Shown: positions 14,499 to 19,019, counted from the stretch's first letter. The stretch: 37,071 bases of DNA from Lachnospiraceae bacterium (GCA_024691065.1 JAILOA010000227.1:1-37071), one strand, 5' to 3'. Numbers and translations: made by a program. Notes: generated by a model from the letters alone, not told the origin.

Positions 14499-14527
14499 TG
14501 TAACTCATTTGTAACGCATTGTATGGT
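14499..14527 (+). promoter_or_regulatory. Site A: tandem TGTAAC direct repeat (11-bp period) overlapping a candidate promoter of the 531-aa gene
   Basis: TGTAACTCATT TGTAACGCATT occupies 14499-14520. Candidate promoter is TTGTAA (14498-14503), an 18-nt spacer, then TATGGT (14522-14527). The ATG is 73 nt downstream of the -10-like hexamer. Confidence 0.5.
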
Positions 14528-14599
14528 AGACTTGTGAAAAAAGATGGATGAAAAGGAGTTCATCTTAATTGATAACTATTTGAAAGAGAGGTAAAAGTT

Positions 14600-16195
14600 A
14601 TGAATAATAACGATCAGAATCAAATTGATAATATTAATAATTTAAATTATGGACAGAATAATTATAACTTCGACGATAATAATAGTATTGTAGATGTTGA
14701 TGCAAATAATATTGATGATTCTATTTTAGATGGTGAAGAAAATGAGATGAACCAGAACCAGATGGATCCGAATATGATGTATCAGAATCAGATGGATCCG
14801 AATATGATGTATCAGAACCAGATGGATCCGAATATGCAGATGAATCAGAATCAGATGGATCCGAATATGATGCAGCAGAATATGCAGATGGATCAGAATC
14901 AGATGGATCCGAATATGATGCAGCAGAATATGCAGATGGGTGAGAACCAGATGAATCAGAATCAGATGGATCCGAATATGATGCAGATGAATATGCAAAA
15001 TCAGAATCAGATGCAGCAGAATCTGCAGGTTGAAGAAGAGAAGAAGAGAAGAGAAAAGGAAGAAGAAGAAGAAAAGAGAAAGGCTTTCATTGCTCAGGAA
15101 GCAAAGATTCAGAGGGAGAAGGAAGATATTGCTATGAAACAGCAGCAATTCGAATTCGAAAAGAATGCCTTTGAACAAATGAAGGAAGAACAACAGGAAA
15201 GGATGGCTAATGGTCAGGGTAATGGTCAGAATAAACCGGAAGATCCTAATGAAATAAAGCCTACTAAGCGTGTTCGTACAAAATTAGAAGATAGATTGAT
15301 TCGTCAGGCGGAATTTACATACTATAAGAGAACACATAGGGTTCCGAAGGGCGGAAATGAAGCATATAAGAATTTACAAAAGGATCTCGCCGCTTTAGAG
15401 GATTATATGGAGGAAATCGAAGGAAGAACCAATCTTACACAGGAAGAAATGGATAAGTATGATAAACTCTCTTTGCAGGTTTATGATGCATCAAGAAAAT
15501 ACCTTCAAGAAAAGAATGAGGAATATGGTCTAGAGGCTTCTGCAGGTGAAAGAGCAGCAATGAATGCCAAGAAACCTGACAAGGAAGAAAGCGCCAGAAT
15601 AGACTTTGTAAAAGATTTAGCCGCAAGTGTACATCTTATGCGTAAGGAAATGTTTGAGGATCAGCTAAAGGAAAAGGTAGAAAGTCTTAATGCATTGGCA
15701 AGTGAAGGTGTTGCAGCAAGTCAGAGAGACAGAGATGCACTTTTGGGTGCTGATTTATCCGATAATGATAAGAGAGTTCAGCTTGAAGATACAGTTGTTC
15801 GTTCATTGTTTTATGATGCAAGAATCGGTCAGGCCGCTTCTAAGAACGAACTTGAGCTTAAAGAGGGAGAAAGCTTTGATAAAGCATTGATTCGCCTGGA
15901 TTCCTTACTTGATCCAAAGCCTGTAGAATTGGATGGTATCCGTAATGATCCTCTTACTCAGACAATAGTAGACAAGGGTGTTCAGATGAATGAATCCGGA
16001 TTATCCATGACAGTTGATGATATTAATCATGAGAAGAATGTGATCCTGGTTCAAAAGGGAAGAGAAATTGAGCATGAGCGTAACAGACAGAATAATATGG
16101 CTAAGCATGAGCCTGCACGTCAGAATAATCTCGAGAGACAGCTTGAGGGACCTCAGCCAAATAATATCAGCACAGTTCATGCACCCGGTTTCTAA
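14600..16195 (+). CDS. Leaderless 531-aa protein: N/Q/M-rich repeat head (NQMDPNMM units), K/E coiled coil, helical C-terminal domain; unknown function
   Basis: AGAGG RBS. No signal peptide or TM segment. The repeat region spans aa 50-143. I recognise no family. Confidence 0.75.
   Translation: MNNNDQNQIDNINNLNYGQNNYNFDDNNSIVDVDANNIDDSILDGEENEMNQNQMDPNMMYQNQMDPNMMYQNQMDPNMQMNQNQMDPNMMQQNMQMDQNQMDPNMMQQNMQMGENQMNQNQMDPNMMQMNMQNQNQMQQNLQVEEEKKRREKEEEEEKRKAFIAQEAKIQREKEDIAMKQQQFEFEKNAFEQMKEEQQERMANGQGNGQNKPEDPNEIKPTKRVRTKLEDRLIRQAEFTYYKRTHRVPKGGNEAYKNLQKDLAALEDYMEEIEGRTNLTQEEMDKYDKLSLQVYDASRKYLQEKNEEYGLEASAGERAAMNAKKPDKEESARIDFVKDLAASVHLMRKEMFEDQLKEKVESLNALASEGVAASQRDRDALLGADLSDNDKRVQLEDTVVRSLFYDARIGQAASKNELELKEGESFDKALIRLDSLLDPKPVELDGIRNDPLTQTIVDKGVQMNESGLSMTVDDINHEKNVILVQKGREIEHERNRQNNMAKHEPARQNNLERQLEGPQPNNISTVHAPGF
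14747..15028 (+). repeat. In-frame tandem DNA repeats encoding (M/Y)QNQMDPNMM units
   Basis: The core CAGATGGATCCGAATATG occurs six times at intervals of 30-51 nt (30-nt and longer repeat units). Confidence 0.9.
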
Positions 16196-16483
16196 TAAAT
16201 TAAGTAAATAAGATGATATATATACTGCCCAGCTTGTCCAGGTCTTTATATAAGGCTTGGTAGCGGATTTAAGGTCCGGATAAAAGATATATTCCAAAAT
16301 ACACCGAATCCGCGTGTTACCAAGTATGGGCAATATATTTATATATGTGAAATATTTGTTAAGTATTAAAATAAGCTTGAAGAAATATGAATATGTATGA
16401 TAATATAGGCTTGAGAAGCCTTTTATGGGAGTTTCGGGATACAGTTAGTAAATGTAAAATATTAAAAGAAGGAGGTGGCTTTA

Positions 16484-17797
16484 ATGCGCAAGGATTTAAA
16501 AGATAAGCTTGTAAAGGCAGGTAAGGTAATTATTTGTGTTTCAGGTCTGGTCTTATTTGTTTATCCGCCGGAAGGGTTTTCCATGCCGGAAAAAACCGAA
16601 ACAGTTAAGGTTATAGAAACGCCTAAGCCAACTCCGGCTTATAGGATATATCCTAAATATGCACCTACAGTACCTGTTGAACAGGTTGTTAATATTGAAG
16701 AGGAAGTAGAGGAAGTAACCGAAGAAGTGGATTTGGACATTGCATTTTCTACTTCGGAAGAAGGAATAAAAATTTATAAGGAACCTGAAAAGTCAAAGGA
16801 TTATCTTGGTAAGCTATATAAAGGAAATGTAGCTAGTATACTCAGCGTAAACGATGGTTGGGTCAAGATAAAGTCCGGTGATATAAAAGGATATGTAAAG
16901 GGAGATAATCTCTTAATGGGAGAGACAGCCCTTGGATATGCTGATTATTTCGGTACCTATTATGCGAATATTGTAAAAGATAATGATTGTAAATTAAAGG
17001 TTTTCAAGCAAGCCTCCAGAGATTCCAAGATAATAGACAGGGTTGCTACCGATAAACAATATAAAATTCTCGGAAATGCCGGTGAATGGGTACAGGTTCA
17101 GATAGATGATTCGGAAGTCGGTTATGTAAATGCTGATTTTGTAATTCCTGAGCTTGTATTTACCGAAGCGATTTCAAAAGAAGAAGAAAAGGAAATAATA
17201 AAAGAGCAGGAAAAACTTGAGAAAGAGTATAAGAAGCAATATGCTGAAGATCTTGGATTGAATGCTGATATAAGTGAATTTGTTTCAAGAAATGAGAGTA
17301 GGAATTTCCCTACTACTCCGGAGGAAACATATCCGACACAGACATCGACCGAGACAGCTAATGTTTATGCTACTTCCAACAATAATGAGCTTCCGCCTGT
17401 AACGGCTTATTCGGGCGATGTCAGTGGTGGTTCGGCACTTCAACAGGAAATTGCATCTTATGCATTACAATTTGTCGGTAATCCTTATGTTTGGGGTGGC
17501 GAGAGTCTTACAAACGGTTGTGACTGTTCAGGTTTTGTTATGAAGATATATGAGAAATATGGAGTTAAACTTCCGCATTTTGCTGCATCTCAGGCAAATT
17601 ACGGAAAGAAGGTTTCATTGGATGCCTTGGAGCCCGGAGATCTCGTATTCTATTGGCACGGTAATATGATTGGACATGTTGCTATGTATATAGGTAACGG
17701 AAATATCGTACATGCTAAATCCACAAAGGATGGCATCGTTACTAACAGTGTTAATTACAGCACTCCATACAGTGCAGTAAGACTTGTAAATAAGTAA
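16484..17797 (+). CDS. Cell-wall hydrolase: signal-anchor + two SH3b domains + C-terminal NlpC/P60 endopeptidase
   Basis: I moved the start to ATG 16484, 8 nt after GGAGG. SH3b-like segments are GKLYKGNVASILSVNDGWVKIKSGDIKGYV and YKILGNAGEWVQVQIDDSEVGYV. The NlpC/P60 core is GNPYVWGGESLTNGCDCSGFV ... GHVAMYIGNGNIVHA. Confidence 0.9.
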   Translation: MRKDLKDKLVKAGKVIICVSGLVLFVYPPEGFSMPEKTETVKVIETPKPTPAYRIYPKYAPTVPVEQVVNIEEEVEEVTEEVDLDIAFSTSEEGIKIYKEPEKSKDYLGKLYKGNVASILSVNDGWVKIKSGDIKGYVKGDNLLMGETALGYADYFGTYYANIVKDNDCKLKVFKQASRDSKIIDRVATDKQYKILGNAGEWVQVQIDDSEVGYVNADFVIPELVFTEAISKEEEKEIIKEQEKLEKEYKKQYAEDLGLNADISEFVSRNESRNFPTTPEETYPTQTSTETANVYATSNNNELPPVTAYSGDVSGGSALQQEIASYALQFVGNPYVWGGESLTNGCDCSGFVMKIYEKYGVKLPHFAASQANYGKKVSLDALEPGDLVFYWHGNMIGHVAMYIGNGNIVHAKSTKDGIVTNSVNYSTPYSAVRLVNK

Positions 17798-17831
17798 ATA
17801 GGTTCTTACATTTAAGTTAATGGAGGATAAA

Positions 17832-18461: not shown

Positions 18462-18555
18462 AATGTAACGGACATTACGGTACATTTGATTAATAAGAAA
18501 CATTTAAATTTCAGATAATACCTAATAATTATCAAATAGATATAAAACAATAAAA

Positions 18556-18585
18556 AGCGCTTACTTTAAGTAGGCGTTTTTTTTA
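18556..18585 (+). terminator. Rho-independent terminator closing the hydrolase/protease pair
   Basis: AGCGCTTACT-TTA-AGTAGGCGT stem-loop (one G-U pair) followed by TTTTTTTT. Confidence 0.7.
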
Positions 18586-18790
18586 TTGCTTTTTATGAAT
18601 GATTTTAAGGAAAAAATTTTGAGAAATTATATGGAAAGATTTTAGGGCATATTTTGGAAAAATTTATGATAAAAATATATGAATTTTTTGGGGGAATAAA
18701 AAAGTTTTTTTGATTTTTGTGAAAATGCCTTAAATTAGAGGTTATCGGGCTTTTCCGGTTTTTATGTGTTTTTTATGTTTTCTTATTATG

Positions 18791-18824
18791 TGTTACACAT
18801 TTGTAACGCAGAGGGGTGTATGAT
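18791..18824 (+). promoter_or_regulatory. Site B: tandem TGTTAC/TGTAAC repeat (11-bp period) with a downstream TGTATGAT extended -10-like element
   Basis: TGTTACACATT TGTAACGCAGA occupies 18791-18812. TGTATGAT occupies 18817-18824. It lies exactly 200 bp upstream of site C, inside a 625-bp AT-rich intergenic region. Confidence 0.4.
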
Positions 18825-18990
18825 AAAAGAGTAAATTCGATACAAATGAATTTATGCTTGGCTGATGCAGACTATTTATAGGGAATTACAGCTGATTTAA
18901 GTTCATTATAAAGATTTACGGATGGGAAATGAATGCTGAAATTAAAAATGTTTAAAATTATTTTAAAATATTTTAAATTTTAACGGTAAG

Positions 18991-19019
18991 TGTAACGCAT
19001 TTGTAACTCATTATATAGT
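18991..19019 (+). promoter_or_regulatory. Site C: tandem TGTAAC direct repeat overlapping a candidate promoter of the 208-aa gene
   Basis: TGTAACGCATT TGTAACTCATT occupies 18991-19012. These are the same two 11-mers as site A in swapped order. Candidate promoter is GTGTAA (18990-18995), an 18-nt spacer, then TATAGT (19014-19019). Confidence 0.5.

Follow-up and report, generated by a model that had tools for sequence, protein, structure and literature searches.

The window considered here, that is, the whole stretch of DNA that was analysed, comprises 37,071 nucleotides (nt) of a Lachnospiraceae bacterium (GCA_024691065.1 JAILOA010000227.1:1-37071) and contains three plus-strand copies of a 22-base-pair (bp) element built of two TGTAAC-like hexamers 11 bp apart. 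Site A (14499-14520) reads TGTAACTCATT then TGTAACGCATT, site B (18791-18812) reads TGTTACACATT then TGTAACGCAGA, and site C (18991-19012) reads TGTAACGCATT then TGTAACTCATT. An earlier note on this DNA had described these sites, and its coordinates and letters proved exact: A and C consist of the same 11-mers in swapped order, and direct reading of the window sequence places B upstream of C at a distance of exactly 200 bp. All three sites are intergenic and lie on the same strand as the genes downstream of them. The element appears to be the upstream half of a promoter type, conserved among Lachnospiraceae of rumen and gut, in which a direct repeat of two hexamers replaces the -35 box ahead of genes for large leaderless proteins.

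The genes around the sites are encoded on the plus strand. The series opens with a VirB4-like ATPase (271-4506), which matched NCBIfam NF045975 with 548 bits, slightly below the cut-off of 590, and continues with a STAS protein (4542-4841), a secreted protein of 1680 amino acids (aa) with a signal peptide (4933-9975), a 466-aa protein (10021-11421), a 306-aa protein (11454-12374), an RsbW-like kinase (12412-12849) and a SpoIIE/PP2C phosphatase (12846-14486). This upstream part of the cluster (271-14486) has no copy of the element of its own. Behind site A lie the genes of a leaderless, Q/N/M-rich 531-aa protein (14600-16195), an N-terminally anchored SH3-NlpC/P60 endopeptidase (16475-17797) and a 213-aa M50B-like membrane protein (17820-18461), followed by a strong terminator (18552-18582). 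Between 16195 and 16475 no terminator was called; therefore, the unit driven by site A would comprise the 531-aa gene and probably also the NlpC/P60 and M50B-like genes, which are presumed to be co-transcribed as one operon (14600-18461). Sites B and C would be tandem promoters of the genes that follow them (19087-23520), which encode two leaderless, highly charged proteins of 208 aa (19087-19713) and 1209 aa (19891-23520). The NlpC/P60 gene has a possible promoter of its own (TTGAAG-16-GATAAT, 16377-16404), and the 1209-aa gene is preceded by an additional TG-extended promoter-like site at 19801-19830. The interval between the 531-aa and NlpC/P60 genes also holds a long imperfect inverted repeat (16256-16324), cttggtagcggatt ... 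aatccgcgtgttaccaag, with no T-run after it. The N-terminus of the 531-aa protein consists of about 130 residues of degenerate QNQMDPNMM repeats, after which comes a stretch that is highly charged and coiled-coil-like. One domain, about 110 aa long, is common to the 208-aa protein and the C-terminus of the 1209-aa protein (34%, E 2e-8), and it is also found in the middle of a 1190-aa protein of the related locus L133 (13799-17371) and of a 1179-aa protein of the related locus L134 (14061-17600).

Within the window the element is rare and sharply defined. The pattern TGTWAH-N5-TGTWAH is matched exactly by A, B and C only, against 0.45 matches expected, and a count of three was reached in 2 of 100 shuffles. 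When TGTAACNCATTTGTAAC was sought with at most two mismatches, three matches were observed versus 0.03 expected, and none of the shuffles reached three. A position weight matrix trained on 20 related sites gave 33 bits to each of the three sites; the runner-up position in the window, which is intragenic, received 6.6 bits. In an alignment of 20 sites (the 19 copies described below and a variant from the related locus L131), the sequences flanking A and C show no relationship. Therefore, A and C do not belong to a duplicated segment, and a larger A/C duplication was ruled out. An RNA element was rejected as well, since Rfam gave no family for any part of the window and transcription is predicted to start downstream of the element. 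The weaker relatives that the earlier note had listed, namely TGTAAC at 4888, TGTACA at 4910, TGTTAC at 31974, GGTTAC at 31985 and TGTAAC at 32023, are present as strings, but each scores below 6 bits and they are not members of the family. The pair at 4888 and 4910 is spaced by 22 bp and has no -10 box at the proper place. The string at 31974 forms the TG-extended -10 of an ordinary strong promoter (31954-31982, TTGCAT-17-TACAAT, TG extension) of a CHAP-PG_binding-GH5 gene (32145-34097), which accounts for its having been listed. Matches to the consensus with one mismatch are not enriched in the window (17 observed, 11.5 expected).

The conservation of the element was examined on both strands of nine distinct loci (198.5 kb in all) anchored on the gene of the 213-aa M50B-like membrane protein, which belongs to a compact Lachnospiraceae family including that of Eubacterium ruminantium. 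These loci are the window, L130, L131 (the E. ruminantium cluster), L132, L133, L134, L135, L136 and L138, where the labels L130-L136, L138 and L139 denote related Lachnospiraceae loci. They are syntenic with the window and define a conserved Lachnospiraceae cluster (271-18461 in the window; L130-L139) that encodes the VirB4-like ATPase, the STAS protein, the RsbW-like kinase, the PP2C phosphatase and the M50B-like protein, together with several proteins of 500-2100 aa that have neither a Pfam match nor a signal peptide. In L131 and L136 the gene order is 1680-like, 466-like, 306-like, RsbW, PP2C and a homologue of the 531-aa gene. Loci anchored on the PP2C gene were tried as a conservation set and discarded; the homologues share about 40% identity and stand in unrelated contexts, so they are useless for conservation.

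A search of the nine loci for the hexamer pair, TGT[AT][AG][CT]-N5-[TC]GT[AT][AG][CT], a pattern that does not include the -10 box, gave 21 matches, 19 intergenic and 2 intragenic. The element is present in seven of the nine loci in 19 copies: three in the window, one in L130, two in L131 (5157 and 9927), three in L133, five in L134 (one divergent pair among them), one in L136 and four in L138. The same search found none in L132 and L135. With the -10 box added to the pattern, 19 copies were observed against 0.045 expected, and the maximum in 200 Markov simulations was one. All 19 are intergenic and run in the same direction as the next gene, whose start codon follows at a distance of 35-296 nt, mostly 67-101 nt; long leaders outside the window occur in L131 (5157; 263 nt), L134 (710; 210 nt) and L138 (4381; 196 nt). 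Most of the sites are followed by large genes (571-2151 aa), whose products have no Pfam match and charged N-termini without a signal peptide. Others are the M50B-like gene in L131, a unit of LCP and MBOAT genes in L130 and a CvpA-like gene in L138, the last being followed after about 150 nt by a lysozyme-like gene.

The 531-aa protein has a homologue in L131 (L131_601; 30%, E 5.5e-38) and another in L136, where the similarity lies in the C-terminus of L136_2151 (28%, E 3e-22). In the window, L131 and L136 alike, the gene follows the PP2C gene and has the element in front of it, at the orthologous positions 5157 in L131 and 3426 in L136. Thus the conservation upstream of orthologous genes that the earlier note had proposed to check is found. 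The small regulon that it had postulated, co-controlling leaderless 'cargo' genes, gains support from the presence of the element in seven of nine loci before cluster genes, the 531-aa orthologues included. For the 1209-aa protein, a single homologue was found among 5.8 billion proteins, and the 4-kb contig that encodes it (L001) does not include the promoter region. This JGI contig (sample 3300003523; 1-4077, compared with window positions 19507-23520) is 93-100% identical where it covers the last part of the 208-aa gene and approximately 200 codons at the start of the 1209-aa gene. Beyond these codons, the proteins are 35-45% identical, a mosaic of conserved head and variable body like that of polymorphic effectors.

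The alignment of the 19 copies and the L131 variant yields the consensus TGTWRY-NCWTT-TGTWRY-N11-TAnnnT. The arrangement hexamer-N5-hexamer is present in 20 of 20 sites, with the invariant TGT and GT separated by 11 or 12 columns. Apart from TGT, C, T, GT and TA...T no position is invariant, and conservation does not extend into the flanks. The spacer is N-C-(A/T/C)-T-T in all 19 copies and ends in T-C in the L131 variant, so that the C and one T are common to all. The hexamers themselves drift from locus to locus: TGTAAC in the window, TGTTGC/TGTTAT in L130-L136 and TGTTAC/TGTTAT in L138. At offset 11 after the second hexamer, TAnnnT is found in 19 of 19 intergenic and in neither of the 2 intragenic hexamer-pair matches, whereas at offset 6, the position favoured by the earlier note, it occurs in 6 of 21. 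This offset test is independent of the pattern definition, although the definition was drawn from the sites themselves. The boxes that the earlier note had named, TATGGT (14522-14527) and TATAGT (19014-19019), do stand 18 nt after (T/G)TGTAA, but the conserved -10 lies 5 nt further downstream. The -10 boxes of the window are therefore TAGACT, TATGAT and TAAAAT. With the -10 box at -12 to -7, the two hexamers fall at -40 to -35 and -29 to -24; columns -35 to -30 of the alignment read Y-N-C-W-T-T and show no likeness to TTGACA. A TG dinucleotide at -15/-14 extends the -10 box in 10 of 19 promoters.

On this geometry, promoter A (14499-14532) consists of the hexamer TGTAAC (14499-14504), the spacer TCATT, a second TGTAAC (14510-14515), 11 nt with TG at 14524-14525 and the -10 box TAGACT (14527-14532); transcription is predicted to start at about 14539, and the ATG is at 14600. 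Promoter B (18791-18824), the distal one of the tandem pair, is TGTTAC-ACATT-TGTAAC, 11 nt and TATGAT (18819-18824), and 296 nt separate it from the ATG of the 208-aa gene. Promoter C (18991-19024), the proximal one, is TGTAAC-GCATT-TGTAAC, 11 nt and TAAAAT (19019-19024), 96 nt from the ATG at 19087. For B and C, transcription would start at about 18831 and 19031. L135, which carries two copies of the candidate regulator discussed below and no TGT-type element, has in its intergenic region 1594-1653 (minus strand) the direct repeat GGGCAG-ATGAT-GGGCAG-N11-TAAAAT, upstream of a 4034-aa gene. The geometry is the same and the hexamers are unrelated, which may be due to chance or to a changed specificity.

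The use of a response-regulator direct repeat in place of a -35 box is textbook knowledge. We consider each site to form the upstream half of a sigma-A promoter that depends on an activator, a binding site of an OmpR/PhoB-type response regulator, with a probability of about 0.7; this value refers to the activator site only and not to the identity of the protein. A winged-helix response regulator of the OmpR/PhoB superfamily would bind the two hexamers as a head-to-tail dimer on one face of the DNA, and the bound dimer would recruit the sigma-A RNA polymerase in place of the -35 contact, in the class II manner of PhoB, CiaR and the Streptomyces antibiotic regulatory proteins (SARPs). The earlier note had likewise recognised 11-bp direct repeats over the -35 region as typical of such activators, and the 19 copies with their fixed distance to the -10 box support it in this. 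The earlier note is to be corrected in that the first hexamer forms half of the activator site rather than a -35 box.

This arrangement is paralleled by OmpR/PhoB-family class II sites in general and by the Pho box of Escherichia coli, in which two direct repeats with an 11-bp period replace the -35 box. PhoB boxes share this period, and TAN3T/A follows them at 10 bp (PMC1906773); the distance from the proximal repeat to the TAnnnT -10 box is thus about 10 bp for PhoB, compared with 11 nt in 19 of 19 sites here. The PhoB half-site also includes TGT, but it is CTGTCAT rather than TGTWRY, its spacer is simply A/T-rich rather than NCWTT, and it serves a phosphate uptake regulon, whereas the present host is a Firmicute with a VirB4-like/partner-switching cluster. 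CiaR of Streptococcus recognises TTTAAG-N5-TTTAAG with 10 nt to the -10 box (PMC3091779). It agrees almost completely with the present case in the order hexamer-N5-hexamer, 10-11 nt and -10, and in providing a searchable signature of a small regulon (PMC3091779); it differs in the hexamer, in the branch of the regulator family and in the targets. In Streptomyces, SARPs bind direct repeats in 11-bp units overlapping the -35 region of cluster-situated targets through an OmpR-like winged helix (PMC10972967). In contrast to SARPs, the candidate regulator described below has a receiver domain, as in two-component systems, the host is a Firmicute, and the repeats are hexamers and not heptamers. The short tail after its winged helix resembles, by eye only, the start of the BTAD domain that SARPs have besides their OmpR-like DNA-binding domain; Pfam gave no match to BTAD in the candidate at E up to 1.

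The same geometry bears on the idea that the direct repeat is an operator, in which case a protein bound at -40 to -24 would block the polymerase at constitutive TG-extended promoters. WalR acts comparably at iseA, which it represses by binding over both the -35 and the -10 (PMC13525142). The TG extension, which is able to replace a -35 box, is present in 10 of 19 promoters, and a 33-bp footprint such as that measured for VicR (PMC4168254) would reach the -10 box. However, repression does not call for one constant distance to the -10 box, such as offset 11 in 19 of 19 copies. Moreover, no -35 hexamer can be recognised at -35 to -30 in any of the promoters, and the 9 of 19 without a TG extension would be very weak unaided. 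We regard repression as distinctly improbable.

The -10 box also bears on sigma factors. TGTAAC is the -35 hexamer of SigX in Bacillus subtilis, where a CGxC-type -10 follows at 16-17 nt. The element might thus be the -35 box of a SigX-like extracytoplasmic function (ECF) factor or of another alternative sigma factor, and such a factor could be the output of the complete STAS/RsbW/PP2C partner-switching module in the cluster, which has no obvious one. The likeness to SigX-type promoters is nevertheless limited to the TGTAAC string. In A, B and C no CGAC or CGTC stands 16-17 nt after either hexamer. The box that does follow, often TG-extended, is a sigma-A-type TAnnnT, 22 nt after the first hexamer and 11 nt after the second, and neither is a spacing for sigma. 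The second hexamer, which is equally conserved and required here, has no role in a sigma model, and domain scans found no sigma-70 family domain in any cluster protein. This explanation, which the earlier note had mentioned as an alternative, therefore falls away almost entirely, and we give it very little weight. The consensus sequences of SigB, SigF, SigG, SigE and SigK showed no consistent fit when the sites were read by eye, and CcpA cre, TnrA and LytTR (AgrA/ComE-type) sites have the wrong symmetry or period. The invariant distance that a repressor does not need and the second hexamer that a sigma factor does not need together point to a winged-helix dimer that would recruit the sigma-A polymerase.

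Among winged-helix regulators, WalR (YycF/VicR), the essential cell-wall two-component regulator of Firmicutes, suggests itself because of the hexamers. Its box, TGTWAH-N5-TGTWAH, is known from B. subtilis, Staphylococcus aureus and Streptococcus mutans and has been used in Clostridioides difficile (PMC9210968, PMC4168254, PMC13525142), whose genome has 29 exact intergenic matches and where the NlpC/P60 gene cd630_27680 has two copies (PMC9210968). If the sites were WalR boxes, their genes would belong to a cell-wall hydrolase regulon. The copies in the window are exact, as are three of the four in L138, and cell-wall genes do occur in element-driven units: the peptidoglycan endopeptidase gene of the NlpC/P60 family in the unit of site A, LytR_cpsA_psr (LCP) and MBOAT genes in L130, and CvpA-like and Phage_lysozyme2 genes in L138. 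On the other hand, most first genes encode large proteins with neither a Pfam match nor a signal peptide. The orthologous copies break position 5: none of the 12 sites in L130, L131, L133, L134 and L136 matches the TGTWAH pair, their first hexamer being TGTTGC/T, and the variant site of L131 likewise has G at this position (TGTTGG). The G at position 5 of the first and sometimes the second hexamer also violates the S. aureus WalR motif, TGTHH-N6-WGTNDD (PMC10746227). The 5-bp spacer of WalR boxes has been described as non-conserved (PMC4168254), whereas here it is conserved as NCWTT. In S. aureus, the sites from which WalR activates lie upstream of the -35, and those from which it represses lie between the -35 and -10 or below them (PMC10746227), while the present element keeps a single fixed position, -40 to -24, in place of the -35 box. 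Up to five sites are crowded in one 20-kb cluster, and the hexamer preference drifts between genomes, which is unexpected given the highly conserved DNA-binding domain of WalR. The WalR box was the first reading of the sites, and it was downgraded by the TGTTGC of the orthologous sites, the conserved spacer and the fixed class II position; we now hold it to be unlikely. Even a perfect fit to the WalR consensus is not enough by itself to establish a WalR site. As a separate observation, TGTGAAATATTTGTTAA at 16346-16362 differs by one mismatch from the WalR consensus and lies 14 nt upstream of TTGAAG-16-GATAAT, a classical position for a WalR activator, yet one-mismatch matches occur at background frequency.

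The activator that the geometry suggests is, as the earlier note had stated, not encoded in the window: the scanned open reading frames of at least 99 aa contain no response-regulator (receiver) or other DNA-binding Pfam domain. Related clusters, however, adjoin genes of one family of 262-285 aa proteins with a receiver and a Trans_reg_C domain (88.5 and 27.8 bits; cut-off 26.2) and a short C-terminal tail. These genes are found in L131 (17321-18136), in L135 (two copies) and in L138/L139, and in L131 a gene for a PF06580 histidine kinase is adjacent. Among solved structures, the candidate is closest to receiver domains and to a few full-length regulators of the OmpR family (DrrB-like 1p2f, PrrA 1ys6), and none of the 60 matches listed for it is a structure named WalR, YycF or VicR. 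Autoregulation is usual among two-component systems. In L131 the variant element TGTTGG-ACATC-TGTTGG-N11-TATAAT (15364-15397) precedes an operon of a 129-aa gene, the PF06580 kinase gene and the regulator gene at the end of the cluster, which suggests that the regulator operon is autoregulated. Two loci found by the DNA motif alone show a related picture: in L035 the element lies between two genes of the candidate family, and in L125 it precedes a PF06580 kinase gene whose product is 39.5% identical to the L131 kinase. Since the relatives have TGTTGC, the spacer is conserved and a regulator is encoded beside the clusters, a dedicated regulator is more likely than WalR. To this particular receiver and Trans_reg_C family we would assign slightly less than an even chance, and what is left beyond it and WalR would fall to another OmpR-type protein.

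Several points weigh against this interpretation. The regulator gene is absent within 10 kb in L130, L133, L134 and L136 and from the window itself; L135 has two copies of the regulator and no recognisable element, and L132 has neither. The exact fit of A, B and C, and of nothing else in the window, to the WalR box has been noted above. The pattern definition is derived from the very sites that were counted. We infer activation rather than repression from geometry alone, and about half of the promoters are TG-extended and could fire without an activator. In a metagenome scan with TGTWACNCATTTGTAACNCA, 5 of the 121 matches listed had a -10 box at offset 11, which is approximately what chance gives for TAnnnT. 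The matches listed were dominated by two unrelated repeat families. The first, gammaproteobacteria-like, has the form tttttTGTAACCCATTTGTAACCCAAA...ctaagtcattgatttaaatgg, includes L007, L011, L012, L015, L017, L019, L026, L027 and many others, and lies very often within about 250 bp of a contig end; it may mark the boundary or attachment site of a mobile element. In the second, Bacteroidota-like (GC 0.29-0.42; L018, L020, L034, L039, L054, L063, L070, L071, L073, L126 and others), a terminator hairpin is directly followed by TGTAACACATTTGTAACACAAA, sometimes with a third copy, at an 11-bp period. To our knowledge, WalR is absent from the phyla that these two families resemble. TGTAAC repeats with an 11-bp period are also abundant in these families, and the hexamer pair alone names no regulator. 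The discriminating power lies in the full architecture, including the -10 box. A motif-first genome scan, in which TATNNT was placed one base after the 22-mer and hence 5 nt off the conserved -10, returned five matches, two of them in Clostridia.

Summarizing, the element is of a well-known kind, and the regulon is new and uncharacterised. Judged from the positions of the sites, it would comprise genes around the VirB4-like/STAS-RsbW-PP2C/M50B-like cluster, in the window the 531-aa unit and the genes of the 208-aa and 1209-aa proteins. A literature search found no published description of this cluster, which may represent a protein export system derived from type IV secretion and controlled by partner switching. 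It is possible, although we consider it doubtful, that the element is the signature promoter of such an undescribed system of rumen and gut Lachnospiraceae, in which a dedicated regulator with a receiver and a winged helix switches on the cargo together. The system would then have as its parts the VirB4-like ATPase, the M50B-like protein, the peptidoglycan hydrolase and the STAS/RsbW/PP2C switch, and the motif would permit a genome-by-genome listing of fast-evolving, leaderless and partly mosaic cargo proteins. The element itself is unsurprising; its value lies in a sharp signature that links the genes of large, unannotatable leaderless proteins around the cluster, names a candidate regulator and allows the regulon and the putative cargo to be predicted in any genome that bears the cluster.

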